Shown: piece by piece, positions 15,243 through 56,048 of the stretch | How the letters are laid out: each line of letters opens with the position of its first letter | Position numbering within the stretch: the first letter of the stretch is position 1 | Virus record (IMG/VR): IMGVR_UViG_3300008107_000202 | Reading direction: 5' to 3' (one strand) | DNA: 64,000 bases | DNA from: a virus | Lineage: Duplodnaviria; Heunggongvirae; Uroviricota; Caudoviricetes | Position numbers and translations under genes: made by a program | The notes under the pieces: generated by a model | Seen by the model: only the letters and a program-made list of their open reading frames with translations | Told to the model about the DNA's origin: nothing | The model's database searches: none

Positions 15243-15794
15243 ATGAAACAATGTAAAGACTGCAAAGAATATCGAAGCCTCACAGACTACTATATCTGCA
15301 ATAAAAAACCTCTGCGTTACTACTCGTCGTGTAAAGAATGTACAAAATTAAAGTCTAGAAGTAAATACGCAAATCTATCAGAAGAGCAAAAAAACATAGA
15401 ACGAAAGAAAAGACTTGATAGTCTCGATAGAGAAAGAGCAAAAGCTAGAAGTACAAAACACTATTCCACAGTAGAAGGTAGGGCCAAGACTCTATTGAAA
15501 GGTGTCAAGGATAGAGATGTTTCTCACGATCTTGATCTACAATGGTTCATTGACAAGCTTCAGGTCGGTAAGTGTGAAGTTACAGGTATTCCGTTTGATT
15601 TCAACCCTCACCCTGTTTACAAGAAGAACCCAATGTCACCATCTATCGACAGAATCAACTCATCTCTTGGTTATCAAAAAGAAAACTGTAGAATGGTAGT
15701 GTGGCAATATAATATGGGCAAAGGTGAAACGTCCGACTCGGAATTCTTAGAGTTTTGTAGAAAACTCGTATCAAAATACAAGGAAGAACAATGA
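15243..15794 (+). CDS. Zn-finger / His-Me-finger (HNH-family) endonuclease-like protein
   Basis: N-terminal CxxC..CxxC; C-terminal SIDRINSSLGYQKENCRMVVWQYNMGKG. Confidence 0.45.
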   Translation: MKQCKDCKEYRSLTDYYICNKKPLRYYSSCKECTKLKSRSKYANLSEEQKNIERKKRLDSLDRERAKARSTKHYSTVEGRAKTLLKGVKDRDVSHDLDLQWFIDKLQVGKCEVTGIPFDFNPHPVYKKNPMSPSIDRINSSLGYQKENCRMVVWQYNMGKGETSDSEFLEFCRKLVSKYKEEQ

Positions 15795-17950
15795 CACTTA
15801 AATACTGGATTTGGGATATTGAAACGTACCCTAACTGTTTCACCATCAGCATCATTCGTCAAGACGGTAAGCACCTTCGTTCTTTCGAGTGCAGTCGTCG
15901 GAAGAATGATTTCGCCAAAATTCGCACCTGTGTGGAATATCTCGAAGAAAACGATGCAGTCATGGTCGGTTTCAACAACCTGGGATTCGACTATCCTGTC
16001 CTGCATGGTCTACTGCTGCATCCTGGCGTTGACCAAATGTCAGGTCTTGGTGTAGCAAAGCTGGCGTATAAGCTAGCTCAGGCACAGATTGATTCAACCA
16101 AGCAAGGTTTCCCTAAGACCGTTCCTGTGTACGACTGGATTGTTCCCCAGGTAGATTTGTATAAGATTTGGCACTTCGACAACAAGGCCAAGGCTACAGG
16201 TCTGAAGATGCTTGAGTTTAACATGCGCTCAGACAATATTGAAGACCTTCCGTATGCTGTCGGCACCGAACTGGAAGACCATGAGATTGATGTGTTGATT
16301 CATTACAACCAGCACGATATCAAGGAAACTCTGAAGTTCTTCGGTCATAGTCTTACTCAAATTCACTTCCGTGAAGAACTGACTGCTAAGTATGGTCGCA
16401 ATTTCATGAACCATAACGACACGAAGATCGGTAAAGACTACTTCATCATGGAGCTAGAGAAGCAAGGTGTGAAGTGCTATATCAAGCAAAACGGTAAGAC
16501 TGCGCCTGTACAAACTCGTCGTCCTTACATCAATATCGCAGACTGCTTGTTTGATTACTATGACTTCAAGCGTCCTGAGTTCATTGCAATTCTGGAATGG
16601 TTCAAGCACCAACGCATTCGTGAAACCAAAGGTGTGTTTGCTGATATTGCAGAGCATCGTCTTGGTGAAGTTGCGAAGTATGCGAAGATGCGTACCAAAC
16701 GTCAACGTTATCCAATGAAGCCTAGTGAGATTGTAGAAAACCTGTTCAAGAATGAGTATCCCTGCGGATGGATTGACGAAGTAGAACTGAAGCAGAAACT
16801 CAAGGGTGAGTTCAAGAAGAGTTACTGGAAGTGCTGGAACGTGGCAGACAACCTGAACGTGGTAGTTGATGGTTTTCAATTCGACTTTGGTACAGGTGGT
16901 ATTCACGGTAGCCTAGAGTTCACGCTGGTGGAAGCTGACAGTGAATACGAGATTGTAGATGCTGACGTTAGCTCAATGTATCCTAATCTGGCTATCTCCA
17001 ATGACGTTTACCCTGAACACCTTGGTATTGAATTCTGTACGATTTACAAAGCAGTGTATGAAATGCGTAAGTCCTACAAGAAAGGTACACCTGAGAACCT
17101 GATGCTCAAGCTGGCTCTGAACGGTGTTTACGGTGACTCGAATAACCAGTACAGTCCGTTCTATGATCCTAAGTACACGATGACGATTACGATTAACGGA
17201 CAGCTCACACTCTGTCTACTTGCTGAAAAGCTGATGACAATCGAAGGTCTGCAACTGATCCAAGTCAACACTGACGGTGTTACTGTGAAGATTCCTCGTG
17301 CCAAGCGTGCTGAGTACAACGCAGTATGTGAAGCATGGCAAAAGCAAGTTAAGCTTGAGCTTGAGTATGCGGAGTATTCGAAGATGTTCATTAGAGATTG
17401 CAATAACTATATCGCGGTGTACACTAACGGTAAGGTCAAGCGTAAAGGTGTGTATCAGTACGAAGACCTGGGTTGGCACCAAAACCAGGGCGGTCTGGTT
17501 ATCGCCAAGGCTGCTGAAGCTGCAATGGTTCATGGTACAGATATCGAAGAGTTCATCAAGGCGCATACTGACAAGTATGACTTCCTGATGCGTACAAAGG
17601 TGCCTCGTAGCTCAAGTCTATATCTTGAGAAAGATGAACTGGATGCTGAAGACAAACCTGTCAGAGTAAAGCAACAGAATATCTGTCGATACTACGTGTC
17701 AAAGTCTCCTGACAGTGGTAAGCTGATCAAGGTCATGCCTCCACTACCGAAGAAACCCGATGACGTTCGTGAAATCGGCATCGAGTCAGCTTGGAAGGTG
17801 AAGACTTGCAACAACATGCTTGACTTCGACGGACAGATCGACTATGCTTACTACGTTCATGAAGCAAGAAAGCTTCTGGTACCACCTGTGTTTACTCGTG
17901 AAGAACTTGCCAAGATGGCAGAAGGGAAAGACGATGAGTTTGAAGAATGA
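15791..17950 (+). CDS. DNA polymerase, family B (3'-5' exonuclease plus polymerase)
   Basis: Exo I WDIETYP; motif A DADVSSMYPNLAI; motif B KLALNGVYGDS; motif C QVNTDGVTV. Confidence 0.85.
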   Translation: MTLKYWIWDIETYPNCFTISIIRQDGKHLRSFECSRRKNDFAKIRTCVEYLEENDAVMVGFNNLGFDYPVLHGLLLHPGVDQMSGLGVAKLAYKLAQAQIDSTKQGFPKTVPVYDWIVPQVDLYKIWHFDNKAKATGLKMLEFNMRSDNIEDLPYAVGTELEDHEIDVLIHYNQHDIKETLKFFGHSLTQIHFREELTAKYGRNFMNHNDTKIGKDYFIMELEKQGVKCYIKQNGKTAPVQTRRPYINIADCLFDYYDFKRPEFIAILEWFKHQRIRETKGVFADIAEHRLGEVAKYAKMRTKRQRYPMKPSEIVENLFKNEYPCGWIDEVELKQKLKGEFKKSYWKCWNVADNLNVVVDGFQFDFGTGGIHGSLEFTLVEADSEYEIVDADVSSMYPNLAISNDVYPEHLGIEFCTIYKAVYEMRKSYKKGTPENLMLKLALNGVYGDSNNQYSPFYDPKYTMTITINGQLTLCLLAEKLMTIEGLQLIQVNTDGVTVKIPRAKRAEYNAVCEAWQKQVKLELEYAEYSKMFIRDCNNYIAVYTNGKVKRKGVYQYEDLGWHQNQGGLVIAKAAEAAMVHGTDIEEFIKAHTDKYDFLMRTKVPRSSSLYLEKDELDAEDKPVRVKQQNICRYYVSKSPDSGKLIKVMPPLPKKPDDVREIGIESAWKVKTCNNMLDFDGQIDYAYYVHEARKLLVPPVFTREELAKMAEGKDDEFEE

Positions 17951-19760: not shown

Positions 19761-21284
19761 ATGTTTCAACCTAACCCAATTCTCGCTGCTGACTTCTACA
19801 AAATCGGTCACGTTTTCCAGTATCCGCTTGGTACCAGCGAAATCTATTCCAACCTGACTGCTCGTTCGAACAAGCGTGCTCCGCTTGCAAACGGTCGATA
19901 CATTGACAAGGTTGTATTTGTTGGTTTGCAAGTATTCCTGATGCAATTCCTGCAAGAGCAATTCCAAAAGCTTTTCTTTGATAAGCCAAAGGCTGATGTT
20001 GTTGCTGAGTTCAATCGTCGTAATGATGGTGCTCTCGGTCCTGGCTCGGTTGATAGCTCGCACATTGCTGCGCTGCACGACCTGGGTTACCTGCCTCTGG
20101 AAATCAAGGCACTTCCTGAAGGCTCGCTCGTTCCGATGGGTGTCCCGATGTTGACTGTTCACAATACTCTGCCTGAGTTCTACTGGCTGACGAACTTCAT
20201 CGAAACTGCTCTCAGTGCTGAAATCTGGAAGATTATTACTTGCGCAACTGTCGCGTTCGAATACCGTAAACTGCTTGAGCGTTGGGCTAAGCGAACTGGT
20301 TCTCCGAAGGATTTCGTTCTGTGGCAAGGTCACGACTTCTCGATGCGTGGTATGTCGGGTATCTCCGATGCTGCTCAATCTGGCATGGGCCACCTATTCA
20401 GCTTCCTTGGTACTGACACGATCCCTGCAATCGAAGCTATCGAAAAGTTCTACAACGGTCTTGCAACCTTCGTCGGTGGTTCGGTTCCTGCAACTGAACA
20501 CAGTGTGATGTGTGCTGGTGGCATGGAAGATGAGAAGGAAACCATTCGTCACCTGATTCAAGATGTTTATCCGAGTGGTGTTGTGTCGGTTGTTTCTGAC
20601 ACCTGGGACTTCTTCAAGGTTGTTACTGAAACTGCTACTGAACTCAAGGATGTTATCCTGAATCGTCAACCGAATGCACTTGGTCTTGCCAAGGTTGTGT
20701 TCCGTCCTGACAGTGGTAATCCTGCTGACATTCTCTGTGGTGATCCGAAGGCTCCTGCTGGTAGTCCTGAGTCGAAGGGTGCTGTGGAATGTCTGTGGGA
20801 AATCTTCAGTGGTACTGAGACTGAAACTGGTCACAAGCTTCTGAATCAACGTGTGGGTCTGATCTACGGTGATAGCATCACGCTCGAACGTGCTGAAGAA
20901 ATCATGCAGCGTTTGCACCTGAAGGGATTCGCTTCCGCTAACGTGGTGTTCGGTATCGGTAGCTTCACGTATCAGTACCTGACTCGTGACACTTTCGGCA
21001 TGGCAATGAAGGCTACTTCTGCTGTGGTGAATGGTCAACGTCGCGCACTGTTCAAAGACCCCAAGACTGACGATGGTCTGAAGCGTAGTGCTCGCGGTCT
21101 GCTGAAGGTTCAAGAGCTTGACAACGGTAACTTTGTCCTGCACAATGACTGCACGGTTGAACAAGAACAGACTGGTGCTTTGCAGACGGTGTTCCTCAAC
21201 GGTCGAATCACCAAGATGTTTACCATCGATGAGATTCGAGCTAAGGTCAACACTGCTGTTGACAAGTATCTGCTGACGGTATAA
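19761..21284 (+). CDS. nadV: nicotinamide phosphoribosyltransferase (NAMPT/NadV)
   Basis: The N-terminus ILAADFYKIGHVFQYP and overall length are typical of NAMPT. Confidence 0.85.
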   Translation: MFQPNPILAADFYKIGHVFQYPLGTSEIYSNLTARSNKRAPLANGRYIDKVVFVGLQVFLMQFLQEQFQKLFFDKPKADVVAEFNRRNDGALGPGSVDSSHIAALHDLGYLPLEIKALPEGSLVPMGVPMLTVHNTLPEFYWLTNFIETALSAEIWKIITCATVAFEYRKLLERWAKRTGSPKDFVLWQGHDFSMRGMSGISDAAQSGMGHLFSFLGTDTIPAIEAIEKFYNGLATFVGGSVPATEHSVMCAGGMEDEKETIRHLIQDVYPSGVVSVVSDTWDFFKVVTETATELKDVILNRQPNALGLAKVVFRPDSGNPADILCGDPKAPAGSPESKGAVECLWEIFSGTETETGHKLLNQRVGLIYGDSITLERAEEIMQRLHLKGFASANVVFGIGSFTYQYLTRDTFGMAMKATSAVVNGQRRALFKDPKTDDGLKRSARGLLKVQELDNGNFVLHNDCTVEQEQTGALQTVFLNGRITKMFTIDEIRAKVNTAVDKYLLTV

Positions 21285-22743: not shown

Positions 22744-22880
22744 TGAAAAAGTTCATCTTTACACTCCTGATCGGTGTCTTTGGGGCATTGACAGGAGTTC
22801 TTTTCACTGTATCATACCTCGATCCTGGCATTCGATTAATGATCGGTTTCTTCTTAGCTAACCTCGGAGTCTACTACTAA
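22743..22880 (+). CDS. small membrane protein (45 aa)
   Basis: ATGA overlaps on both sides; hydrophobic. Confidence 0.3.
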   Translation: MKKFIFTLLIGVFGALTGVLFTVSYLDPGIRLMIGFFLANLGVYY

Positions 22881-23731
22881 TGAACTACCCGTCCCTCAAG
22901 CAGATGCAGCAACTCGTCGCAGATAAGCTTGCTATTCAGAAGCTTTATGGTGACGATCTGGTAATGTTTAAGTATTCACGCAAGGCTATGTTCGACTACA
23001 TGTGGTTCAAGCGACCTGAACTCATGGAGTGTCGTGGTCATGTGTACCGTCTTTCGACTGGTGAGCGTGTGGTACATGCTCCCCGTAAGTCGTTCAATTA
23101 TCTTGAGAATGATTGGTGGAAAGATGTTCCATTGAACACCGAAGTCCGTATCGACAAAAAGTTTAATGGTTATATGGCATGTGTAACCTTGGTGGATGGT
23201 GACTGGTTGATTACGACTACTGGTAGTTTCGATAGTGAATACGTCAAGCATGCGCAGAATATGCTGACTGGTCATCCTGCTCTTGAAAACGAAGACAACA
23301 TTGATTGCACACTGGTATTTGAAATCTGCGACAGTAAGTTTGATCCACACATTGTTGAGGAACAAGATGGTGCTCACTATCTTGGTTCTCGCATTTCTAA
23401 CGGAAATTGGCTTGCTTATTCGACTTCCAATACTGTGATTGGAATTACCCTCGGTGAAGCAATTCAACTTGCTGAGCGTGATCACGGTGAAGGTTTCATG
23501 GTCTATCAGCTACAGGGTGATCCTCTGTACAATCGTCCATGTAAGCTGAAGAGTCCGTATTACATTGGTAAGAAAATGCTGATGCGTGCTACTCCGTATT
23601 TTAAGATTGATCGACTACCAAAAATGTGGAAAAATGCACCATATTTGATTCAAGATCATTATCTGTGGTCAGATTGGTGTGAACTACCCGAACAAGAACG
23701 TCGTCTATTTTTGGAGAATCACTATGGATAA
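22880..23731 (+). CDS. Rnl2-like RNA ligase (nucleotidyltransferase)
   Basis: Motif I DKKFNGYMA (KxNG), motif IV EGFMVYQ, motif V CKLKS; the N-terminus resembles T4 Rnl2. Confidence 0.5.
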   Translation: MNYPSLKQMQQLVADKLAIQKLYGDDLVMFKYSRKAMFDYMWFKRPELMECRGHVYRLSTGERVVHAPRKSFNYLENDWWKDVPLNTEVRIDKKFNGYMACVTLVDGDWLITTTGSFDSEYVKHAQNMLTGHPALENEDNIDCTLVFEICDSKFDPHIVEEQDGAHYLGSRISNGNWLAYSTSNTVIGITLGEAIQLAERDHGEGFMVYQLQGDPLYNRPCKLKSPYYIGKKMLMRATPYFKIDRLPKMWKNAPYLIQDHYLWSDWCELPEQERRLFLENHYG

Positions 23732-35937: not shown

Positions 35938-36139
35938 GTTGAGTCGTTCTTCTAGTGGCCCAGGAAATGTTCCCGTCTTGTGGACAGAACGCAGGTTCGA
36001 ATCCTGCACGACTCGACACCTTAACTTAGTTCCTAGTTTAACGGCCAAAAACGAAGCCTCTATCCCGTTCGATTCGGGTAATCTGCATGATGGTCGCAGG
36101 GGTTGTATCCAAGGTTCGATTCCTTGGGGAACTAAGTTA
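35938..36139 (+). ncRNA. Structured tRNA-like RNA driven by B-type promoter copy 2: element 1 (35938-36011) with acceptor GAGTCGT/ACGACTC and T-arm GCAGG-TTCGAAT-CCTGC; element 2 (36018-36139) closed by a perfect 15-bp stem and containing two T-arm mimics
   Basis: Stems and T-loops read directly. No plausible ORF, so the overlapping table ORFs were rejected. Confidence 0.35.
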
Positions 36140-36161
36140 AGGTAATCAACAGGAGAACACA

Positions 36162-37434: not shown

Positions 37435-37860
37435 ATGGCTTGGTTCAGCAAAGAAAACATGCAGTCGAAGCGCCCCCTGGTCAATGCTGTACTCAAGAAG
37501 TACGACATGAAAGGCACGCTCAGCGGTACGAACACTTCAGGTGTCACGCTCACGATTACCGAAGGTCCGCTGAATTTCATGGAAAATTGCGCGCATAAGA
37601 TGGAAAACGACGCGCATGGTCGTCCTGCGAACGCTGTGACGCCTGATGAAATTCGTGCTCGCAAGTACATGGATGTGAACCGGTACTGGTACCATGAGCA
37701 TTTCGACGGTCAGTGTCTGGAATTCCTCAAGAAAATCATGCAAGTGCTCGACGATGGTAACCACGACAACAGTGATCCAATGACGGATTACTTTGATGTG
37801 GGTTGGTATGTGTACGTCAAGATTGGCAAGTGGGAGAAACCCTATGTTCTTCGAAAGTAA
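37435..37860 (+). CDS. hypothetical protein
   Basis: ORF only. Confidence 0.4.
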   Translation: MAWFSKENMQSKRPLVNAVLKKYDMKGTLSGTNTSGVTLTITEGPLNFMENCAHKMENDAHGRPANAVTPDEIRARKYMDVNRYWYHEHFDGQCLEFLKKIMQVLDDGNHDNSDPMTDYFDVGWYVYVKIGKWEKPYVLRK

Positions 37861-38461
37861 AAAACCCTTGCGGGTGCTGGTAGCATGTGAGACTTCTGGC
37901 ACCGTTCGTAATGCCTTCGCTAGTCGAGGGCATTCTGTCATGTCAGTTGACCTACTGCCTGCATCCGATGGTGTACAATCCGGCATCCATGTCGTTTGTG
38001 ATGTGTTGGAATTCATCAAGTGGAATGGTTACAAGTTCGACCTGATGATTGCGCATCCTCCATGCACTCACCTAGCTGTGTCGGGTGCTCGGTGGTTCAA
38101 GGATAAGCAGGAAGAGCAAAAGAATGCTGTAGACTTTTTCCTGAAGCTTACACAGGTGCAGATACCCGCATGGTGCATTGAGAATCCTGTATCGGTCATG
38201 TCAACGCACTATCGCAAGCCTGATCAACGCATTCAACCCTGGCAACACGGGCATCAGATGCAGAAGACCACATGCCTTTGGTTAAAGAATCTCCCTCTGT
38301 TGCAGCCTACAAACGTTGTTGACAAGGGTGAGTTTCATGTGACAAAATCAGGCAGGCGAATTCCTGCTTGGTACAATCTACCTGAGCGAAAGTCCAGATG
38401 GCAAGAGCGCAGCAAGACGTTCGAAGGGGTGGCACAGGCTATGGCTGTACAGTGGGGGTGA
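37844..38461 (+). CDS. short C5-cytosine methyltransferase-like protein (motifs I-like ACETSGT, IV PPC, VI ENP); lacks a target-recognition domain
   Basis: AHPPCTHLAVSG; WCIENPVS. Confidence 0.4.
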   Translation: MFFESKKPLRVLVACETSGTVRNAFASRGHSVMSVDLLPASDGVQSGIHVVCDVLEFIKWNGYKFDLMIAHPPCTHLAVSGARWFKDKQEEQKNAVDFFLKLTQVQIPAWCIENPVSVMSTHYRKPDQRIQPWQHGHQMQKTTCLWLKNLPLLQPTNVVDKGEFHVTKSGRRIPAWYNLPERKSRWQERSKTFEGVAQAMAVQWG

Positions 38462-39480
38462 TCAAAAACCCATAGGGCTAAAGTTGACTAAAAAACCCTT
38501 GGGGGGTGCTTGACAAAATGCATCCCTGGTGGTGGTTAACCTGGGCCAGATTCGGCGGCCAGCGTTCCGCATGGTGAGAAGCCGTTTCATGATGCGAAAA
38601 GCACGCCGAAGCCCGGGATTCCACAATGTAGAACGTAACACCACGATATGAAACGCTGACTAGCATAAAATCAATCCCTTGTCAAACGTAGGGTCTTTTC
38701 ATATGGTGAAATCCATATAGCACGGAATGTAAACCCCTGTCAAGCGCAGGGGCTTTTCGCATTGTGAAACGTCCAGGCGGCAGCGTGACTAAGCAGTCAC
38801 AGACAAAACCGAAGAGTCACAAAGTATACTGGCACGGATTCTGCTAGTAGCAAACCGCATGCCAGCTTTTGCATACCCCCTACGGGTACCCCTATATACC
38901 CCCGTGGGGTACCCCCTCAATTTACCTAGGGCAGCGCATACCCTACCCCCTATTTTTTACAGATACCCTAGAGGGGGTCGATCTTTTTTTGCCAAGGGTA
39001 GGACAAGGGAAAGCAGGAAAACGGCGCCAAAGCCCGATTAGACCCATCCGTGGGCATTCTCACGATATGAAACGGTCTGACAATCGACTATCTACAGGTT
39101 ATCCACAGAATGCAGGCATGAGACTTGCTAAAGAATCTGCATTAACCCTGCAATTGCGTAGGGTATTGTTTACATGCTAGAATTCTATACGGTCAGAGCA
39201 AATGTCGTATTTATACAACAAACGCGCAGGCTCCACGTCCACCCCAGTCGCTTTCGAATAGAACGATTGTACTACAGAATCCAGGCGCACAAGCAATACC
39301 CGACAAAAACACAGGGACAAATAAAACGCTTGACAGTCCAGGCGGAAACGTAGTAATCGCATGCGCCAGCGTCTAGATGAACAGCACCAGGGAACCTAGG
39401 GTTTACACCTATTCCCTTACAGTTGACAAGGTTATTGTTCGGGTTCACAATAGACCCATCGAATCAAGAAACGGATACAG
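38462..39480. repeat. ~1-kb non-coding region rich in short direct repeats (CACGATATGAAACG x2, GTCCAGGCGG x2, TACCCCC x4) and hairpins (CCCCTG-N7-CAGGGG + CTTTTC)
   Basis: No ORF with an RBS. Repeats read directly. Confidence 0.5.
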
Positions 39481-39664
39481 AGATGCACCCCGACTATCTG
39501 CTTTTCCTAGTGCCCGTGGCTCTGATTTGTGGCATCATCGCCATCGATTTGATTAACAGGTAAGTTTTGCATATCCCCTAAACAGGGGGTTGCATCGATA
39601 AGGGTTCACTGACAGAATCCTAATCAATGCAGCAACAGTGCCGCAGAAACCGAAAGGGTTAATC

Positions 39665-39799
39665 ATGTTTGAAGTGACAATTGTTTGGGAGGGTGAATTC
39701 TTCGCCCATGAAGCCACCACGGAAACCGAAGCGCGGGAATGGCTCGCGCAGTATCCGAATGGCGCACAATGTCGCGGCAGAATCTGGCGCTTGTGGTAA
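39665..39799 (+). CDS. small protein (44 aa) in the GC-rich island
   Basis: RBS-like AAAGGG plus ATG. Confidence 0.3.
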   Translation: MFEVTIVWEGEFFAHEATTETEAREWLAQYPNGAQCRGRIWRLW

Positions 39800-39872: not shown

Positions 39873-40037
39873 ATGTTCAATAAGCCGGACCCTCTCGCAC
39901 TCCGTGACGTAATCGACCGGGAGAACACCCGCAAACGCGACGAAGCAGGGCAGCGCCGCAAGGCACAATCCGCATTCCGCAAGGCCCGCAAGGCGCACAG
40001 CCGCAACAGCGTTTGCGCTTTCGTCAACGCCGACTGA
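39873..40037 (+). CDS. small basic protein (54 aa); preferred over the antisense ORF 39848..40048
   Basis: ATG with upstream AGGACAA. Confidence 0.3.
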   Translation: MFNKPDPLALRDVIDRENTRKRDEAGQRRKAQSAFRKARKAHSRNSVCAFVNAD

Positions 40038-40062
40038 TCAACCAGCACAAGGAGTTAGAACC

Positions 40063-40317
40063 ATGTTTCAACGTTTCACCAGTACCCGTCTGATTTCCAC
40101 CGATGCCGAGTGCCAGGGCATGCGCCCGGGTCAGTGGGTGACCCTCACGAGCGGCGCCCGGGGTCAGTATCTGGGAACGACCCGCGCGGGTGTTACCGTC
40201 ATTCGTTGGCAGTCCGGCCGCTTCGCCAGCACCAGCAGCGGCGGAACGACCCCGCAGGATGACGCCCGCAACAATCGCCCGCTTCGTCAGTACGCCAAGC
40301 GATACGGGGCCAAGTGA
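40063..40317 (+). CDS. hypothetical protein (GC-rich island)
   Basis: ORF with GC-rich codon usage. Confidence 0.4.
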   Translation: MFQRFTSTRLISTDAECQGMRPGQWVTLTSGARGQYLGTTRAGVTVIRWQSGRFASTSSGGTTPQDDARNNRPLRQYAKRYGAK

Positions 40318-40464
40318 TGCGAGCAGCCCTTAACGTGGTTTGCATTCTCGCGGCCTATACGTGGGCCATCCTGACCGGTAACACCTGACCGGGTGAACCC
40401 GTCAAGCCTCCGCCATCATGGGGGCTTAGGGGTGCATCCTCGCACTACAACCGGAGCCGCTAGC

Positions 40465-40773
40465 ATGGCTGCAATTTCAACCCGCTACATACCCCCGACG
40501 AACACCAAACCCGCCCGCGTCAAAGCATGGCGAACGGGGCACAAGGAAGGCCCATCGGTGACCGTGGACTTTCACGGTGATGCAACTCTCCCGGGTGAAC
40601 CCGTGCAATGCCCGCATGCCCGCGCAGCATGGCGCCTCGTGCTGAAGCTTGACCCGTGGTTTCATGGTCGGCCGTGGTTTCTCGCAGCTTCCACCGACGA
40701 CCAGCGCGGGTATCTGTTCGCAGTCAACGCAGCAGGCAGCGCCACGGAATTCATTGTTCCCCCTCAAGCCTGA
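40465..40773 (+). CDS. hypothetical protein (GC-rich island)
   Basis: ORF with an internal ATG start. Confidence 0.4.
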   Translation: MAAISTRYIPPTNTKPARVKAWRTGHKEGPSVTVDFHGDATLPGEPVQCPHARAAWRLVLKLDPWFHGRPWFLAASTDDQRGYLFAVNAAGSATEFIVPPQA

Positions 40774-40788
40774 AGGAAACCCGACACC

Positions 40789-41583
40789 ATGCACAAGAAT
40801 CTGACCCCCGGTCAACTTCCCGCGAAACCTTACCGCTTCGTTAGGGTCAGTAGCAACCGCAAAACAGGGCCGATCCCGGTAACGTCAACCGCTGCACAGT
40901 CCTGTCCCATGGCATGCCCGATGCGAACCGATGCGGTCGGCGGATGCTATGCCGCCAGCGGGAACAGCGCGATCCATTGGCGGGCACTGTCCGAAGGCCG
41001 GGCCGCTACTGCCCTGGACTTGCAAGGGTTGACCGATGCAATCCGGGCTTTGCCCCGGGGTCAACTGTGGCGGATGAACGAGGCAGGCGACCTGCCCACC
41101 ACGGACGGCCGCAGCATCGATGCCGATTCACTGCGGGCCATCGTTGACGCCAACCGGGGCCGGCGCGGGTTCACCTACACGCACCATGACCCGATGGCCA
41201 GTAGCGGCCCGGGTTCACTCACCAATGCAGCATTCATCGATGCCGCGAACGTGCAAGGGTTCACCGTGAACCTATCCGCGAACAATCCAGCCCATGCCGA
41301 TGCCCTCGCATCCCTCGGGATTGGTGCGCCCGTGGTGACACTCATGGAGCCGGGTGCATGGAAGGGCAAGCACTTCGCCAGCACTCCCGCAGGCAGGCAC
41401 ATCGTGCAGTGTCCCGCAGAGTATGCCGAGGGCATGACTTGCGCACAGTGTGAACTCTGCGCCAATCGTGAACGCCGCTCGATTGTCGGGTTTACGGCAC
41501 ACGGCAGCAGTAAGCGCCGGGTTATCGGGATTGTGAATGCTGGCAGTGTGAAGCGCCAGGATGCACGCCAGGGGGTTGTTTGA
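40789..41583 (+). CDS. hypothetical Cys-rich protein (CPMACPM..GGC ; CPAEY..CAQCELC), GC-rich island
   Basis: ORF only. Confidence 0.45.
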   Translation: MHKNLTPGQLPAKPYRFVRVSSNRKTGPIPVTSTAAQSCPMACPMRTDAVGGCYAASGNSAIHWRALSEGRAATALDLQGLTDAIRALPRGQLWRMNEAGDLPTTDGRSIDADSLRAIVDANRGRRGFTYTHHDPMASSGPGSLTNAAFIDAANVQGFTVNLSANNPAHADALASLGIGAPVVTLMEPGAWKGKHFASTPAGRHIVQCPAEYAEGMTCAQCELCANRERRSIVGFTAHGSSKRRVIGIVNAGSVKRQDARQGVV

Positions 41584-41735
41584 TGTTTGACACCAAACAT
41601 GCCGCCGCCGTCACGCTGCTAGTAATCGGGGCCGCCCTACTCTGGATCATCCCCACAATCGCCGCTTGGTTCATCCGACGCTATCCACCCGGTAACCCGC
41701 AGCAACCGCCGCCAACTGACCCGCCCGCATCGTAG
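41583..41735 (+). CDS. small membrane protein (50 aa), ATGA-coupled
   Basis: One TM segment plus Pro-rich tail; followed by hairpin GCCCCAGG..CCCGGGGC. Confidence 0.35.
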   Translation: MFDTKHAAAVTLLVIGAALLWIIPTIAAWFIRRYPPGNPQQPPPTDPPAS

Positions 41736-42287
41736 CGAGCAGCATAAGCCCCAGGTATCACGCCCGGGGCTTAGTCGTTTGAATTGTCGTCGGATAATGC
41801 CTAGGGTGACAATTGCCGCTTCGCCTGGACTATAGCCCGAGCCTATCACCGCCTGGATACCGATAGAGTGTAACTATCGCGCGCCCTCGCTATCGCTCGG
41901 GTGTCGCTTCGCTCCTATCGTGTCAGTGGATGCTGTCGCTTTGCTGTCGGATGATGCTGTCGGTGTCACCACCCGGTGACTATCTAGATGGACGATGGGT
42001 TTTCTGTCCGTGGATATTTGCGAATTGCTGGAGGGTATGGTGGAGGGTGGTAGGCTGCGCATCAAGCACATTCTCCAAACTGCTGGTTAATCGACCCAAC
42101 GGTCGGGTAATACACCAGTGTTACTATGATATTTTCTGTGCGGTTTATCCGTTTATAGATACATGTACTTATTTCTATAGGATATTTTGGTAAGCAAAGT
42201 CACTCAGGTACTACCCCGTCTCTTCAAACGCTAGGAATAATTTATAAGAATTACTATCAGCTATCCTAGCAGAGTCATCAGACAAAG

Positions 42288-45659: not shown

Positions 45660-46034
45660 ATGTTTAAAAAAGGTGATCCTAACATCAATCGTTCAGGACG
45701 ACCAACTGTAGCTGAGAAAATCATCAAAGATCGTGAAGCAGGTAAAGCTGTGAGTCGTCGTGCCTTGATGGATCGTGAGCTACTGCTGCTTCTACGTAAG
45801 CTTCGCCCTCACGTTGCTGACAGTGTATTGACTGCTGCTGGAATTATGCAGAATGAGGAAGCCAGTCACCAGAACAAGTTGAAGGCTTCAACGATCATTC
45901 TTGATGCTTATCGCAAGCTGGTCATTGATGTGTACGGTACAGAGGTTGATGAAGACCCTGAAGAAATTCAACAGAATAACGCTCCTGTGTTCAGCCTTAA
46001 GGTTGTAGGACAGGATGGAGAATCCAAGGAATGA
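45660..46034 (+). CDS. terminase small subunit-like protein
   Basis: KGDPNINRSGRP resembles the GNPNGRPKG motif of P27-type TerS; lies upstream of TerL. Confidence 0.4.
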   Translation: MFKKGDPNINRSGRPTVAEKIIKDREAGKAVSRRALMDRELLLLLRKLRPHVADSVLTAAGIMQNEEASHQNKLKASTIILDAYRKLVIDVYGTEVDEDPEEIQQNNAPVFSLKVVGQDGESKE

Positions 46035-46531
46035 CACTGAACAAGATTTGTAAAATTTGTAATATTGAAAAACCACTTTTTGATTTTTACAAGAGTGATG
46101 GGACGAAAGATAAACGTCACAGTTATTGCAAATCTTGTTGTAGCGAAAGAGCGAGATTGAACCATATCAAAAATCATGAAGTTAATCTTGCTAGAAATAA
46201 AAAATACTATATCGACAACCATGAAAAACAAAAAGAAGCAAGACGAGATTACTATAGACGAAACAAGAAAGTCTATCTTGTAAATTTTTATAAGAGAGAT
46301 GCCAGAATTAAGCAGGCTACTCCTTCTTGGTTGTCAGAAGAAATGTTGTCTGAAATAAAACAAATATACAAAAAGTGCGAAACAATCACTATTGAGTCAG
46401 GAACAGTTCATCATGTAGATCATATTGTACCGATAAACGGTAAGACGGTTTGTGGATTGCATGTGCCTTGGAATCTCAGAATTATTACAGCAAGTGAAAA
46501 CTTGAGAAAGAGCAACAAGCATGAAAGTTAG
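46031..46531 (+). CDS. HNH endonuclease (terminase-associated)
   Basis: HHVDHIVPI..NLRIITASENLRKSNK; N-terminal Cys cluster. Confidence 0.75.
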   Translation: MTLNKICKICNIEKPLFDFYKSDGTKDKRHSYCKSCCSERARLNHIKNHEVNLARNKKYYIDNHEKQKEARRDYYRRNKKVYLVNFYKRDARIKQATPSWLSEEMLSEIKQIYKKCETITIESGTVHHVDHIVPINGKTVCGLHVPWNLRIITASENLRKSNKHES

Positions 46532-48026
46532 ACCTGAACAAAAACAGCAAATCATAATTGGACCATCCAGTAAGAAGCAGGAAATGTTTCTTAATTCAGA
46601 TGCAACAATTACTGTTGCCGGCGGAGCAGCGGGCTCGGGTAAGAGTTACACATCCTTGTTGATTGCATTAAAATTCATGAGTGTGCCAAGATCGACGGGT
46701 GTTATCTTTCGTAGAACGTCTAAGATGATTACAGCTCCAGGGTCGATCTGGCATGAGGCAGTTCAGCTTTTTACAACTGTATACCCAAATCTCAAGATTC
46801 GTCATCGTGAAAACGAAATCGTATTTCCAAACGGTTCATTTTTGAAGTTTTCACATATGCAGCACTCATCAGATAAGTACAGTCATAAAGGAGCGCAGTA
46901 CAGTCTGGTTATCTTTGACGAAGCAACAGACTTCGAAGAAGAAATGGTTGTGTATCTGCTGTCTCGTATGCGTAACGTAAACGTACCGTACCAGCCTCAG
47001 ATGTTCCTAATGACAAACCCTGACTATAACAGTTTCCTTAGATTGTGGATTCAGGACTTCTATCTCGACAATACAGGTATTCCTATCCCTGAGAAGAGTG
47101 GTCACCAAAGATCGTTCTTCAGAGAGGGTAACACAATGGTGTGGTATAACAGCAGAGAAGAAGCAGAAGCTGTACACGGTGTTGGTACAGACAATGGTGT
47201 TTCTACGTTCACCTTCATTGGTGCTAACGTTTATGACAATCCCATTCTGATTAAGAATAACCCAAGCTATTTGACTCGTCTACAGAACCTTCCTCGTGTT
47301 GAGAAGGAACGACTACTTTATGGTTCATGGTTTGCAAGACAAGAGTCTGCTGGATTCTTCAAGCGTGAGTGGTGCAAGGAAGTTGATTTCCCTAACGCTT
47401 TAGCTCGTAAGAGAATTCGTGCATGGGACTTTGCTTTCACTAAGCCTTCTGACCAATACCCGAACCCTGACTGGACTCGTGGTACTCTGATTTCGAAAGA
47501 CAAGTCAGGAGTTTACACAGTTGAAGACTTGGTGTCAATCCGTGATCGTGTGCATGAAGTCGAAAGATTGATCTTCGATACCGCAAGACGAGACGGTCAA
47601 GGTGTCACGATTAGCATTCCATTGGACCCTGCTGCTGCTGCTGGTGCATACGCCAGAGATTTGCAACGTCAACTTGCTGAGATGGGATTCCATTGCAAGC
47701 TCTCTAAGCCTGTGAAGTCAAAGCTTACTCGATTCGCTCCGTTCTCAAGTCTAGCACAAGCTGGATTTGTCAATATTGTGAAAGCCCCTTGGAATGGTGA
47801 ATTCTATGATGAACTTGAGTTGTTTGACGGTGAGAACAAGAGACTGAAGGACGACATTGTAGACACATGCTCAGATGCTGTGTTGCACCTTAACAAAGAG
47901 CTTCAGATTCCTAACTTCACGATGCCTAACTTGGACAAGAGTGGTACTTTCGGATTCCAGAACAATCATATTCAGAAAGATGGTGGTGTGCTAAGTGTAG
48001 CAGTGCCTCAGAACATTACAGGATAA
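46521..48026 (+). CDS. terminase large subunit
   Basis: Walker A VAGGAAGSGKSY; C-terminal nuclease domain. Confidence 0.8.
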   Translation: MKVRPEQKQQIIIGPSSKKQEMFLNSDATITVAGGAAGSGKSYTSLLIALKFMSVPRSTGVIFRRTSKMITAPGSIWHEAVQLFTTVYPNLKIRHRENEIVFPNGSFLKFSHMQHSSDKYSHKGAQYSLVIFDEATDFEEEMVVYLLSRMRNVNVPYQPQMFLMTNPDYNSFLRLWIQDFYLDNTGIPIPEKSGHQRSFFREGNTMVWYNSREEAEAVHGVGTDNGVSTFTFIGANVYDNPILIKNNPSYLTRLQNLPRVEKERLLYGSWFARQESAGFFKREWCKEVDFPNALARKRIRAWDFAFTKPSDQYPNPDWTRGTLISKDKSGVYTVEDLVSIRDRVHEVERLIFDTARRDGQGVTISIPLDPAAAAGAYARDLQRQLAEMGFHCKLSKPVKSKLTRFAPFSSLAQAGFVNIVKAPWNGEFYDELELFDGENKRLKDDIVDTCSDAVLHLNKELQIPNFTMPNLDKSGTFGFQNNHIQKDGGVLSVAVPQNITG

Positions 48027-51688: not shown

Positions 51689-52519
51689 ATGTGGACAACC
51701 AGCAACCTTAAACCTGAAATTCAATCTAAACCATTAGAGCACAGAGAAGCGTTTGTCACAGCAGCTAATGCTGCCCTTAAGAAAGGTCGAACGCTCTCTG
51801 AAGCTGAGTTTGCTGGTGAAGCGGCACTTGCTGCTTTATTGAAAGCAAAAGCTAGAAGTTCTCAGACTTTGCTGAACGAAGAAGTAAAGCTGAGACAACC
51901 TCCCCCTCATCTTGCTGCAATTCTTAAAGCTGCAGAGCTTAAGAAGAAAGCACTGGTTGAGAAAGTAGAAGAACCACAGCCTGTTGAAGTCAGACCTACC
52001 GTGGTAGAGCTTCGTTTCGACAGAGAAGGGTATTTGATTGTCAAATTTTCTGACGGCAAGATCGTAAGGTCTAAGAACGCAGTAAAGAAAGACGAACAAA
52101 TCACACAGAATCTGACCGTACAGACATCAGGTAGAGGCAATGGTACTTCTGAATTCTCAACTGAAAGTGAACTAAGTAGACAGTATTACTATGATGTATC
52201 TGAGAACCTAATCAGAATTGAATACGTATCTGGCAACTTCAAAACATTCGAATACAACTCAATCACTGGACTGCTTTCGATAGAAAACTATATCAAAGGT
52301 AGTACCAACTACCGTAAGACATATTTGTACGATTCAGCACAAAGACTGATTGAAATCATCTATGAGGTCGTAGTGTATACACCACCAGTCTTTACGGGAT
52401 TCTTTATTCCTCAGTATTCTGAGCCGCAATCTTTAGTGTTTAGTGGTAACTTCACAAGTCAATACTCTGAACCGGAAACCTTAGTATTTGATGGTCTTCT
52501 TGGACCTCAATACAGTTAA
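51689..52519 (+). CDS. structural protein (hypothetical)
   Basis: ORF only. Confidence 0.3.
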   Translation: MWTTSNLKPEIQSKPLEHREAFVTAANAALKKGRTLSEAEFAGEAALAALLKAKARSSQTLLNEEVKLRQPPPHLAAILKAAELKKKALVEKVEEPQPVEVRPTVVELRFDREGYLIVKFSDGKIVRSKNAVKKDEQITQNLTVQTSGRGNGTSEFSTESELSRQYYYDVSENLIRIEYVSGNFKTFEYNSITGLLSIENYIKGSTNYRKTYLYDSAQRLIEIIYEVVVYTPPVFTGFFIPQYSEPQSLVFSGNFTSQYSEPETLVFDGLLGPQYS

Positions 52520-52532
52520 TTGGAGAAAACAA

Positions 52533-55500
52533 GTGCCAGCAATTTTTTCGCAACAAAGAGTGTTTGCGTCAGCTACACCACCACCTTCGCCCCCTCCACC
52601 GCCGCCACCCCCACCGCCTCCTGCTGCTCCTGGCTTGACGGTCAGTGCTGGCGCTTCCAGTGGTACGGCTGGTGGTGGCACAGTCAGTGGTCCAACATTG
52701 ACTGCCCCAGGTGGAAACCTTTCGTCGGTGAACTGGTCTGCTTCAGCTTCTCCTTCAGGACTGACGATTAGTCCATCAAGTGGAACACTGACTCCGGGTC
52801 AAAGTGTAACTCCAACCCTTAGTTCCATTACTGCTGCTATTTATGCAATTACGGTTGCCAATAACAGTGGTGGTACGATTACAGGTTCAGCGGGTAATGT
52901 TCAGTTCTACGCACCAGTTCCACCGCCACCACCTGCGCCCGCCCCATCGGGTGGAGTTATGCAACTCACCTTGACCAGCGCCACCAGTGGTACGCTACCA
53001 TTTGCGGCTGGTTATACCTTCCGCCAAGGCGACATCCCAGCCGGTCAGGGTGTTGTCGTGTCAGGCGCCACCGCTCAAGCCACGATCAAGAGCACCTGGC
53101 CCGATGGCTCGGCGCGCATCGCCGTCATCGCGGGCACGTACACCAGCGCGGGCAGCCCGGTGACGCTGACGATGAGCGCGGGCACTGCCAGCACGGGAAC
53201 GGTGCTCACCACGTCCGACCTCGATGCAGCCCTGGCGGGCAACAACGTGATCGTGGACGCAGGCGGCCTGGGGCTGGCCTCGTGGAGTGCTGGCGCCGAC
53301 TGGGCGAGCCCCTTCGCCACCTGGGTGAGCGGGCATCGGATGTCGTCGTGGATTTACCGCAAGCCGGTGGGCAGCGACACGCACCTTGTCGCGTGGCTCG
53401 AAGTGCGGCTCTACGCGGGCGGCGCCGTCGAAATCCTGCCTTGGATCGAGAACGGCTATCTGAACGTAGCCTCGCCGACGAACAAGAGCGCCACCTACAC
53501 CTTCAGCATGGGCGGCACGACGCGATTCAGCGGCGTGATCGACCTCAAGCACCACCAGCGCACACCCCTCATCAGCGGCACGGGCCTGTCGCACTGGCTC
53601 GGCACCGACCCGGGCGTGACGATGCGGCACGACGTGGCGTACCTCATGAGCACGGAGATGGTGCCCACGTACCGCGCGCTTACGCCGGCCGGCGCTTCGG
53701 TTGTCAGCTCAGTCTGCCCGACCACCTTTGCGCCGCTGCAGCAGGGCGGGTACACCTACCAATCCGACAGCATGAGCAGCGGCGGCGCAGCCGGGCCCAT
53801 TGGCCTGCTGCCAACGCATGACGTGCTGTATCTGACCTGTGCCGCTGCTGACGCTGCGCGGGTTTACAAGGCGGTTGTCTTCAACGGCTACTCTGCTGGC
53901 CGCTATCGCCACCACTACCGTGACGAGACGACCAACCGGCCGCCGTTGACGAGCGCTTACCCAACCCTCTGGATTGACAACAACACGCCCACGCCCAGCG
54001 GCGGCGAAGGCCCGGAGCGCGACATCGCGCACCATCCCTCTGTCGGCTTCATGGCGTATCTTGTCACCGGGCGCTGGTACTTCATGGAAGAAGCTGCTCT
54101 GTCGGCGAGCTTCAATCACTTCGTCAAGAGCTTCAACTCGGTCATGCGCGACGGGTCGAAGGGCCTGTTCCAGTCCTGCTTCGGCGCGTGGCAGACCCGC
54201 TCAGCCGCTTGGACGATGCGGACCTGGGCGCAGGCCCTGGCGATCATTCCCGACGCCGACACAACACTGAAGGCTGATTACCTTCAGGTCTGGCACGAGA
54301 ACGTGGACAAGTTCCACGCGCAGTACGTCGTCCAGCCCGGCAACCCCTGGGGCTGGGTCGAGCCGGGTGAGGAGTACGACGCCACCTTCCGACTCGGCCA
54401 CGGCGCACCCTGGCAGCAAGATTTTGTTAGTGCAGCGGTGGGCTACTCGCGGGCGCTCGACCTCACGACCGACGCCACGCGCAAAGCCCGCTGGCAGGCG
54501 TTTCACGAGTGGAAGGCACAGTCAACCATCAAGCGCCTGGGCCCGTCCGACGCCTTCTGGTACATCAACGGCGGCGTGTATGGCCAGCGCATCAGCCCGT
54601 CAGCACTGACCGCGGACGACTACCGCAACGGCACCGGCACGTTCTACACCCCGGCGCAGAGCTACGCTCAGATCGTCGCGGGACTGACTGCTGCCTCGGC
54701 CCCGACAGGCTGGATCGGCACGACCGAGGGTGTGCTGAACGGCGAAATCATGCCGGGCGAGTCGGCCATGTGGGGCAACCTGACGCCATCGCTGGCCTAT
54801 GCGGTGCGGTTCGGTATCAGCGGTGCTCTGGCTGCGTATCAGCGGCTTGTTGGCGCGGGCAACTGGATCCCGCTTGCTGCTGCTTTTAATGCGCAGCCGG
54901 TGTGGTCTGTGCTCCCGGCCAGTGGTGCGCTGCCGACGTGGCTTGCTTCGCAGCCGCTGAACACCTGGATTGAGATTCCAAACACGAATGGTCGCGTTAC
55001 CACTGCAGTGGTTAACGGCGTATCTGAGCCTGTGCTGACAACCGGAGATGGGGCATTTGAAGCTTGGGGCGCATTCACGGTAAAAGGTGACACCAGTGAG
55101 CTTTTCATTGCAGCTTCTGGTGGGCACGGTGATAGCTCCGATAATCGCGTGGTCAGTATTTCTCTGTCAAGTGATACCCCGACTTGGGTTCTACGCAGCC
55201 AACCTTCGACAGTAGTGCAACTTGACCGCACAAGTGGTTACTACCTCGACGGTAAGCCCACTTCTCGTCACCTATATGACGATATTTTCTATTTACCGCA
55301 ACTACAAAGGGTGATGATGGTAGGTGGTCGCGCTATTTATGGTGGAGGTGGGCCTGAAACGCCTGCTGTCACTGGATTTGATGTGAACAGCAATACCTGG
55401 GACACTGAAGGAAAGTTTACAAGTGTCGTGCAGAGTGGCGGCACACCTTTTGGTATGGTGATGAATAAGCGGACAGGTGCAGTTTTCACCACAATCTTGG

Positions 55501-56048
55501 GTGCGGTCAGTGGTCGCTGGTCCCCTCCAGTATCAACTACAGGAACCGGGTTAGGTACATTCACAAGCAACGCTGTTACGGGCTTCTCAGCCGTCAACAA
55601 CCGTTGGCCGGGAGCTTGGGATGGAAGTCGCAGTCAGTGCTTTGTTCTAAATCTTGGCAACGGGGAGGGTGGCAACGTCGATTTTGGCCTGCGTGCCTAT
55701 CGCTGGAGTGACACAGGTGGTGTGGCTAATACTATCACGTTTAACACCAGTGCGACATACACCGCTTGGGTGGCTTCAGTACCCGAATATGCAGCGATGG
55801 ATTACGACCCAGACAATGACTGTTATCTGTTTATGCACAAAAAGCAGGCACCTGCTATTCAACGTATTAAACCTAACAGTGGTACAGTGTGGGATATGGA
55901 CACGTTGACTGTGGCAGGCGGCCCACCAACGGCTCGACCATCAGGTAATTATGGGCCTCAAGGCTCATTCAAATACGTGCCAGCGCTTCGCGGTTTCGCG
56001 TATCTGCCACGCGCAAATAGTAACATTTGGTTCATAAGGACGGCCTGA
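52533..56048 (+). CDS. large tail fibre/adhesin-like protein with poly-Pro linker and a central GC-rich (foreign-looking) domain
   Basis: GTG start after GGAGAA. PPPPSPPPPPPPPPPAAP; Ig-like Ser/Thr repeats. The central ~1.9 kb is visibly GC-rich. Confidence 0.5.
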   Translation: MPAIFSQQRVFASATPPPSPPPPPPPPPPPAAPGLTVSAGASSGTAGGGTVSGPTLTAPGGNLSSVNWSASASPSGLTISPSSGTLTPGQSVTPTLSSITAAIYAITVANNSGGTITGSAGNVQFYAPVPPPPPAPAPSGGVMQLTLTSATSGTLPFAAGYTFRQGDIPAGQGVVVSGATAQATIKSTWPDGSARIAVIAGTYTSAGSPVTLTMSAGTASTGTVLTTSDLDAALAGNNVIVDAGGLGLASWSAGADWASPFATWVSGHRMSSWIYRKPVGSDTHLVAWLEVRLYAGGAVEILPWIENGYLNVASPTNKSATYTFSMGGTTRFSGVIDLKHHQRTPLISGTGLSHWLGTDPGVTMRHDVAYLMSTEMVPTYRALTPAGASVVSSVCPTTFAPLQQGGYTYQSDSMSSGGAAGPIGLLPTHDVLYLTCAAADAARVYKAVVFNGYSAGRYRHHYRDETTNRPPLTSAYPTLWIDNNTPTPSGGEGPERDIAHHPSVGFMAYLVTGRWYFMEEAALSASFNHFVKSFNSVMRDGSKGLFQSCFGAWQTRSAAWTMRTWAQALAIIPDADTTLKADYLQVWHENVDKFHAQYVVQPGNPWGWVEPGEEYDATFRLGHGAPWQQDFVSAAVGYSRALDLTTDATRKARWQAFHEWKAQSTIKRLGPSDAFWYINGGVYGQRISPSALTADDYRNGTGTFYTPAQSYAQIVAGLTAASAPTGWIGTTEGVLNGEIMPGESAMWGNLTPSLAYAVRFGISGALAAYQRLVGAGNWIPLAAAFNAQPVWSVLPASGALPTWLASQPLNTWIEIPNTNGRVTTAVVNGVSEPVLTTGDGAFEAWGAFTVKGDTSELFIAASGGHGDSSDNRVVSISLSSDTPTWVLRSQPSTVVQLDRTSGYYLDGKPTSRHLYDDIFYLPQLQRVMMVGGRAIYGGGGPETPAVTGFDVNSNTWDTEGKFTSVVQSGGTPFGMVMNKRTGAVFTTILGAVSGRWSPPVSTTGTGLGTFTSNAVTGFSAVNNRWPGAWDGSRSQCFVLNLGNGEGGNVDFGLRAYRWSDTGGVANTITFNTSATYTAWVASVPEYAAMDYDPDNDCYLFMHKKQAPAIQRIKPNSGTVWDMDTLTVAGGPPTARPSGNYGPQGSFKYVPALRGFAYLPRANSNIWFIRTA

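Follow-up and report, generated by a model that had tools for sequence, protein, structure and literature searches.

A constrained, repeat-rich non-coding region downstream of the early genes of a freshwater phage as a candidate replication origin

We analysed a 64,000-nucleotide (nt) stretch of DNA, hereafter the window, from an uncultivated, tailed freshwater phage (IMG/VR record IMGVR_UViG_3300008107_000202), and within it a gene-free gap that runs from the stop codon of a DNA methyltransferase gene to the ATG at 39484 of a 26-codon open reading frame (ORF). The gap does not code for protein, its core is under purifying selection, it shares its map position with gaps in three other phage lineages, and it carries conserved DnaA boxes, conserved elements of the sigma-54 type and conserved repeats. 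Judged from its sequence, it is a cis-acting, selectively conserved control module of a little-studied group of freshwater phages, and we tentatively read it as an origin of lytic replication. The genes around it are arranged as follows.

1-10 kb, - strand: genes that include 13 tRNA genes
10.3-38.4 kb, + strand: early and replication block, with RNA ligase, PRPP synthetase, NAMPT and thymidylate synthase among its contents
13367-14908: primase-helicase gene (T7-gp4-like), in the early block
15791-17950: DNA polymerase gene, in the early block
37435-37860: gene of a conserved 141-residue protein, upstream neighbour of the gap
37844-38461: DNA methyltransferase gene, whose stop codon is the left edge of the gap
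38462-39483: the whole gene-free control region
39484-39564: 26-codon ORF with a hydrophobic product; the next solid gene begins at 39665
46031-48026: terminase genes, 7 kb from the gap

Downstream of the gap a few small genes lead to a GC-rich island with a DUF7227 gene and then to ClpP and PhoH on the - strand; the structural module begins near 44.7 kb, and the large terminase gene occupies 46521-48026. A DNA similarity search against 50,697 phage records gave no match for the window phage, the gap included. In protein comparisons its nearest relatives in culture are Limnohabitans phage DC31 (terminase 74% identical, polymerase 55%) and Curvibacter phage P26059A (about 47% and about 55%), which makes a freshwater bacterium of the Comamonadaceae the probable host. 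The GenBank record of DC31 (ends L139/L140) has an exact 127-bp copy of its start at its end, which looks like an untrimmed assembly overlap, and no annotated coding sequence in its first 2972 bp.

The gap had initially been annotated as a 1-kb region free of ORFs, and that description held. Ten near-identical contigs from other metagenome samples have about 1030 nt without gene calls at this place, apart from a single 62-residue call in one contig, and the longest ORFs within the gap (at most 103 codons) encode arginine/proline-rich sequences that resemble random translation. Given that the relatives L040 and L125 have open frames of 190 residues across the gap core, it was reasonable to consider that these might be genes. 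However, substitutions in the gap are spread evenly over the three codon positions (15/14/21 in L040 and 21/20/24 in L125), unlike those in the adjacent methyltransferase gene (13/12/38 and 27/20/96), and 1-nt indels occur in the open-frame region. The gap is thus non-coding, and by this test the open frames are accidental. A structured non-coding RNA was likewise rejected, as Rfam at gathering and permissive thresholds returned nothing in the gap (no match above E = 0.78), the RNAalifold covariation term was only -0.12 kcal/mol, with the few double changes lying in a helix that has broken pairs, and the two strands fold only slightly better than their shuffles (z = -2.35 and -2.38).

The lineage of the window is represented by contigs L030-L039 (99.7% identical), by L029, L040 and L043 (about 82-97%), and by L125, the one useful relative from a scan of JGI metagenomes, at 74% DNA identity in the methyltransferase region. 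The left block of the gap is variable in this set: it is deleted in L040 (38543-38750), and other units and an extra TACCCC cluster are found in L043, L125 and L041. The core, 38751-39440, is retained across the lineage relatives. It has diverged from L125 by 21%, about half of the 47% seen at methyltransferase third codon positions, so that purifying selection acts on it, and it includes stretches of 24-30 nt that do not vary at all. The right edge differs among relatives, in that the window, L029 and L032 have the hydrophobic 26-codon ORF and a second promoter 3' of the promoter at 39423, L125 has an alternative ORF of about 68 codons (its positions 2364-2569), and the L030 type has none (11596-11651). 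In these comparisons the segment 39484-39664 behaves as a small swappable gene cassette, and if the 26-codon ORF is only such a cassette, the control region would functionally reach 39664.

Gene-free gaps of 0.65-0.93 kb lie at the same map position in DC31 (19819-20751), in P26059A (71990-72647) and in an 80-kb IMG/VR contig, L148 (5430-6338), that is, after the last early genes (a phrog_10415 homologue, joined by the methyltransferase in the window lineage) and before ClpP/PhoH. All three directly follow a homologue of the 141-residue protein. A set of gap motifs survives between these phages, which have just about 50-75% protein identity. The left-edge AAAAACC(C/T) motifs are common to the window and the gaps of its relatives, and a left-edge stretch of some 42 nt is nearly identical in P26059A; the motif AAATAAAAYG..CTT also belongs to the shared set. 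Motifs of the type TTCAC-N3-GTGAA occur three times in the L148 gap, where they flank DnaA boxes, and twice in that of P26059A, which further has two hairpin units, and the DC31 gap has seven (G/T)CAGTCA repeats. As a genome-wide motif TTCAC-N3-GTGAA was discarded, for its overall count is at expectation (45 against 44.6) and it is enriched only locally. The publications on DC31 and P26059A do not mention the region. An IMG/VR scan for the left-edge motif returned P26059A-like contigs only, and none of 28 IMG/VR loci with distant relatives of the methyltransferase has a comparable gap, so that this gene is unsuitable as an anchor.

The features within the gap of the window are these.

38464-38503, + strand: left-edge pair AAAAACCC(ATAGGG) and AAAAAACCC(TTGGGG), 27 nt apart, at 38464 and 38491, with TTGACT between them
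38583-38602, - strand: inverted copy of the TTCRCRWTRTGAAAY motif, reading GCTTTTCGCATCATGAAACG
38600-38773, + strand: three degenerate 58-nt tandem units, b, c and d, in the variable block
38771-38780, + strand: first copy of GTCCAGGCGG
38785-38820, + strand: short AGTCAC repeats (GTGACT, inverted, at 38785-38790; AGTCAC at 38795-38800 and 38815-38820), invariant in L040 and L043
38830-38864: two overlapping, opposed sigma-54-type -24/-12 elements, TGGCACGGATTCTGCT at 38830-38845 (+) and TGGCATGCGGTTTGCT at 38864-38849 (-)
38874-38968, + strand: TACCC(CC) cluster, nine copies in 95 nt, seven direct and two inverted, with T-runs after it
38965-38990, + strand: terminator-like hairpin ACCCTAGAGGGGGT (38965-38978), then T7
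39055-39076, + strand: second copy of CACGATATGAAACG, inside a 24-nt block, GGGCATTCTCACGATATGAAACGG, invariant in L040 and L125
39088-39107, + strand: DnaA boxes at the end of a strongly conserved block, degenerate CTATCTACA at 39088-39096 and the exact consensus TTATCCACA at 39099-39107
39114-39129, + strand: third sigma-54-type element, AGGCATGAGACTTGCT, beginning 7 nt after the DnaA box
39139-39183, + strand: unit f, with hairpin ACCCTGCAATTGCGTAGGGT (39145-39164), a T-run and extended -10 TGCTAGAAT (39175-39183), homologous to the two P26059A units
39319-39345, + strand: block AAATAAAACG-CTTGACA-GTCCAGGCGG (AAATAAAACGCTTGACAGTCCAGGCGG), invariant in the window lineage; AAATAAAACGCTT is also in DC31
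39423-39451, + strand: early sigma-70 promoter TTGACA-17-CACAAT with the CCCATCG leader usual for the phage, predicted to drive the downstream cassette genes

The three repeats named in the initial annotation are present as described there, and none of them is a random occurrence. The 14-mer CACGATATGAAACG has exactly two copies, at 38642-38655 in unit b and at 39061, against 0.39 expected even when two mismatches are allowed; GTCCAGGCGG has its copies at 38771 and 39336; and TACCCCC occurs four times within 77 nt, out of five occurrences in the whole window. The 14-mer belongs to a larger family, TTCRCRWTRTGAAAY, of 5-6 copies, which include one at 39058 and the inverted one at 38583, and three of which lie in the 58-nt tandem units. 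Each of these units is composed of a CCC..GGG hairpin with a GTCAA loop, a T-run and then TTCRCRWTRTGAAAC, which supplies a -10-like CATTGT or TATGGT 17 nt after TTGTCA or CTGTCA; the stems have 4-7 GC base pairs, and the -35/-10-like hexamers are weak. Tandem Repeats Finder detected no repeats in the gap of the window, because the units are too degenerate, and a profile of the unit (nhmmer) had no significant copy outside the gaps in the window, DC31 or P26059A.

The TACCC(CC) cluster is conserved in L040, L043 and L125 and forms short palindromes, TACCCCCGTGGGGTA. Its complement, at 38876-38916 (-), is one of two G-quadruplex-type motifs (four G-runs with loops of at most 9 nt) in the window, the other lying at 40590-40621 (-). 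A scan of IMG/VR for the TACCCCC palindrome gave 72 loci, none related to the window phage. In unrelated IMG/VR contigs of about 16.3-16.7 kb (L112/L065 and L102/L113), ATACCCCC..GGGTACCCC stands close to each end, at a distance of about 17 nt, and the two copies are inverted, a hint of inverted terminal repeats; these are chance finds with the iteron pattern. The several stem-loops followed by T-tracts that had been noted initially were borne out in part: a scan found two on the + strand in the gap, and since the 3-kb neighbourhood has seven against 3.6 +/- 2.2 in shuffles, the signal is only weakly above chance. The hairpin at 38965-38978 keeps its T-run in L040 and L125 and has lost its stem in L125.

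The short repeat TCCAGGCG has six copies in the window (1.07 expected), three of them in the gap, including those at 39280 and 39337. Two others lie at 41822-41857 (-), intergenic after the GC-rich island, and one at 35870 (+), just 5' of a tRNA-like element. This element, which matches the Rfam tRNA family with 38.9 bits and is not called by ARAGORN, and a second one after it occupy 35941-36143. The second element has a 16-bp closing stem, ACCTTAACTTAGTTCC (36018-36033) with GGAACTAAGTTAAGGT (36127-36142), and a T-arm-like hairpin, GGTTCGATTCC, lies inside this stem. Taken as a whole, the 215 nt fold with z = -4.5 and may be a tRNA-like or Y-RNA-like non-coding RNA.

The exact DnaA box at 39099 is the sole copy of TTATCCACA in the 64 kb of the window; it is kept in L029 and L040 and reads TTGTCCACA in L125. 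In DC31 there are five exact copies, all five of them in the gap, where 0.50 would be expected per 40 kb, and in L148 again five of five lie in the gap, against 0.17 expected. The P26059A gap has one exact TTATCCACA and one TTATGCACA, convergent around an AT-rich palindrome, CTCTTATATAAGA. The DnaA boxes of DC31 and L148 are adjoined by AT-rich TATATAAGC repeats, in place of which the window lineage has its C-rich TACCC array, so that A+T-rich DNA of the kind expected for an unwinding element is present in the relatives only.

Beside these boxes lie the sigma-54-type elements. The imperfect palindrome at 38830-38864 has TGGCA-N7-TGCTA in both arms, and since the N7 spacers differ and are not mutually complementary, it is better described as two opposed sigma-54-type matches than as a true hairpin. 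The element at 39114 keeps its GG and GC in L029, L040 and L125 while the spacers differ. All three in the window, at 38830 (+), 38864 (-) and 39114 (+), follow the consensus TGGCAC-N5-TTGCW with GG and GC one helical turn apart, the window version being CTGGCACGGATTCTGCT. DC31 has a perfect consensus, TGGCACAGATTTTGCT, at 20122-20107 and L148 an element at 5903-5888, which places the elements in three of the four lineages. GGCA and TGC, and with them GG and GC, are invariant over all 17 instances, and the spacers vary (CGGATTC, CGAATCC, GGAATCC, TGAGACT, CGATGCT, TGCGGTT and TGTTGTT); the elements of the window, DC31 and L148 have a flank in common, (A)TACTGGCAC. Over whole genomes the pattern is no more frequent than chance predicts. 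What is non-random is its localisation: of the hits with at most one mismatch, the gaps hold 2 of 4 in the window, 2 of 4 in DC31 (40 kb) and 1 of 2 in L148. One element directly abuts a DnaA box in the window and in DC31, and one is directed into the repeat arrays in the window, DC31 and L148.

Neither an enhancer-binding protein (GAFTGA) nor an RpoN-box protein is encoded in the window, DC31, P26059A or L148, and sigma-54 promoters at these positions would therefore need an activator from the host; no upstream activator site was identified for the elements. Our literature search found neither a sigma-54-driven activation of an origin nor sigma-54 promoters in the control region of a lytic phage. 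That lytic phages of freshwater Comamonadaceae have conserved sigma-54 promoters that abut DnaA boxes and are directed into repeats is a doubtful proposal, and the elements beside the DnaA boxes are at the same time the most novel lead of this analysis. Were the proposal true, the firing of the origin, or else the change to the following set of genes, would be coupled to the host sigma-54 holoenzyme and an enhancer-binding protein, and hence to a physiological signal of the host, with DnaA occupancy gating the promoter; functional elements would give a lytic phage an unusual route to reading host physiology.

Promoters of the ordinary kind are numerous upstream. Between 10300 and 36300 the + strand has about 30 sigma-70 promoters close to the consensus (TTGACA-17-TAnAnT). 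A shared leader, CCCATCG...CAGGAGAT, stands downstream of many of them, and a terminator hairpin precedes some. Promoters and leader together amount to a cassette for early transcription that recurs genome-wide and differs from the gap units.

Taking these observations together, we rank first the reading that the gap is an iteron-type, DnaA-assisted origin of lytic replication that contains promoters of its own, a reading that we hold to be possible and to fall a little short of an even chance. It is ranked first because the gap joins constrained non-coding DNA, a conserved position, DnaA boxes that are otherwise absent, repeats confined to the gap and promoters directed into those repeats. 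In iteron origins, repeats for the initiator stand together with DnaA sites and A+T-rich DNA, and oriLambda requires transcriptional activation (PMC5043065). The gap fits this architecture, and we infer for it an origin function and the following binding events. Host DnaA would bind at 39099 and, through the degenerate box, at 39088, and a phage protein would bind the repeat arrays, which comprise the 58-nt hairpin/TTCRCRWTRTGAAAC units as well as the AGTCAC and TACCC(CC) repeats. Internal promoters would supply transcription that helps to open or prime the DNA; candidates are the sigma-70-like promoters of the units, which are weak, and the elements of the sigma-54 type, of which the one at 38864-38849 (-) would fire leftwards into the repeats. 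The primase-helicase and DNA polymerase of the phage would then take over, and the final 60 nt of the gap would serve as an ordinary early promoter for the next genes.

Several observations weigh against an origin at this place. The window has just two DnaA boxes in its gap, one of them exact and the other degenerate, and the density of degenerate boxes there is that of the background. No 40-nt stretch of it exceeds 67.5% A+T, which is the 95th percentile of the window, and a classical unwinding element is therefore absent. Searches for an adjacent initiator or DNA-binding protein found no Pfam or PHROGs match among the neighbours (ten flanking proteins in the case of Pfam), and the 141-residue neighbour was set aside as a candidate initiator: its structural model is good (predicted local distance difference test, pLDDT, 86) and has no PDB fold match at E <1. 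A need for DnaA is not known among phages whose primase-helicase is T7-gp4-like. Finally, the GC skew of the window, of DC31 and of P26059A does not change at the gap. The initial annotation had listed a replication origin among its candidates and cumulative skew as a check on it; the DnaA boxes and the locus-specific repeats in four lineages speak for that candidate, and the skew minimum lies near 10 kb, not at the gap. The skew tracks the direction of transcription, however, and confounded in this way it is uninformative as a test for an origin.

The main rival to the origin is a hub of purely transcriptional control that would switch expression from the early block to the genes that follow; we think it unlikely. 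DnaA would here act as transcription factor or sensor, the sigma-54 holoenzyme and an enhancer-binding protein of the host would drive the -24/-12 elements, and the hairpin/-10 units would make short non-coding or antisense RNAs, with a leftward transcript from 38849 antisense to early read-through. The conservation of the sigma-54-type elements in the window lineage, DC31 and L148 (GG/GC invariant in 17 of 17) fits such a hub, as do their abutment on DnaA boxes in the window and DC31, the 17-nt spacing of the sigma-70-like hexamers in the units, the terminator-like hairpins, the ordinary early promoter at the right edge and the slight excess of folding on both strands. On the other hand, no Rfam family matches, the covariation term is next to nil, the leftward transcript would cross a block that is deleted or replaced in relatives, and neither RpoN nor an activator for it is encoded in the window, DC31 or P26059A; moreover, five exact DnaA boxes with AT-rich repeats, as in DC31 and L148, exceed what a regulator site usually needs. 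The simpler transcription boundary of the initial annotation is right in part, in view of the early promoter at the right edge, the terminator-like hairpins and the promoter-like elements, but it leaves 1 kb of constrained non-coding DNA unexplained.

A second rival, also among the initial proposals, has the physical genome ends in the gap, as a direct terminal repeat or a packaging-initiation (pac) region. The gap is repeat-rich and non-coding, its size of about 1 kb is similar to that of the direct terminal repeats of Pakpunavirus (1165 bp; PMC12846349), a genus to which DC31 is loosely linked, and several contigs of relatives end in it: L034 at 38973, L043 near 38960 and L041 in a TACCCC cluster, with L029 beginning at 39077. 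These ends are scattered, however, and coincide either with strain-specific indels or with the TACCC/G-run/hairpin cluster; a TACCCCC/G-quadruplex-type cluster is where, or next to where, three contigs of related phages stop. The gap is crossed by at least 10 contigs, and the long ones break off at about 40.3-41.3 kb. The module explains the fragmentation of assemblies around the gap, and the physical ends that had been suggested for it find no support in these contigs. The terminase genes are 7 kb away, we know of no role for DnaA boxes in packaging, and the terminal repeat of PaP1, which was considered as an analogue, carries annotated ORFs and is too distant. We consider genome ends in the gap highly improbable.

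Slimmer still is the chance of a hyperplastic recombination scar, a functionless graveyard left by the gain and loss of small genes and filled with cassettes like the T4-type PeSLs, which pair a stem-loop with a promoter and flank individual genes in hyperplastic regions (PMC2839356, PMC4122927), for although each unit is likewise a hairpin, a T-run and a promoter-like element, the indels of relatives map at repeated units (L040 lacks 38543-38750; L043 and L125 have others) and the right edge has alternative small ORFs, no PeSL-like copies are dispersed between genes, all significant unit copies being in the gap and the TTGACA-17-TAnAnT early promoters being without the unit, changes accumulate in the core at half the rate of synonymous-type sites, and the motif set survives at about 50-75% protein identity.

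Returning to the origin reading, its interest lies in the fact that hardly any environmental phage has a known replication origin or control region. Few freshwater bacteria are more abundant than the relatives of Limnohabitans and Curvibacter, and phages of these bacteria have been isolated only recently. The module is a concrete candidate for an origin in DC31 and P26059A, both of which are in culture, and it can be used as a marker for the phage group; the DnaA boxes in it suggest that this group depends on, or senses, the host initiator.

Some further features of the window may be recorded. The two GC-rich islands, at 40000-42000 (62% G+C) and 53000-55000 (65%), stand out from about 44% elsewhere. 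The first holds the DUF7227 gene (40789-41583) and has a G+C content close to the 59% reported for a Limnohabitans host, and because long contigs repeatedly end at about 40.3-41.3 kb it appears to be strain-variable; the second lies inside an ORF of 1186 codons (52488-56048). In the tRNA cluster, a gene at 4659-6050 (-) encodes a 463-residue protein that matches PHROG 850 ('RNA-binding protein') and Pfam DUF2828 and DUF7788. Together with the two RNA ligases of the window (12121-13182 and 22880-23731), it suggests a toolkit for RNA repair or RNA handling.

Compared with known systems, the gap has partial likenesses to several. It resembles the terminal repeats of about 1.2 kb in Pakpunavirus/Vandenendeviridae in length and through the loose link of DC31, and differs in that the PaP1 repeat has annotated ORFs and the relationship is distant. 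Its units resemble T4-type PeSLs in their stem-loop, T-run and weak sigma-70-like promoter hexamers and in the indels of close relatives at the cassettes, whereas they are tandem, flank no genes, are restricted to this locus and place the -35 inside the hairpin loop. The sigma-54-type elements of the gap have the TGGCAC-N5-TTGCW geometry, the invariant GG/GC and the drifting spacers of RpoN -24/-12 promoters, but they occur in both orientations and directly abut DnaA boxes. The T7 primary origin and T4 oriF/oriG have promoters beside a repeat or unwinding region, and the gap is like them in having promoters by repeats in a phage with a gp4-like primase-helicase; those origins use a phage RNA polymerase or middle-mode promoters and are without DnaA boxes, which the gap has. 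From the DnaA-assisted iteron origins (P1 oriR, pSC101, RK2 and R6K gamma) it departs in its long, 58-nt units with hairpins, in having no recognised initiator gene adjacent to it, in the single exact DnaA box and the C-rich TACCC array, rather than AT-rich repeats, of the window lineage, and in belonging to a lytic phage with its own primase-helicase and polymerase. It agrees with them in being a non-coding locus with replicon-specific repeats, DnaA boxes and promoters that read into or past the repeats, and in DC31, L148 and P26059A also in the convergence of DnaA boxes around an AT-rich element; with oriLambda it would share palindromic iterons and transcriptional activation.

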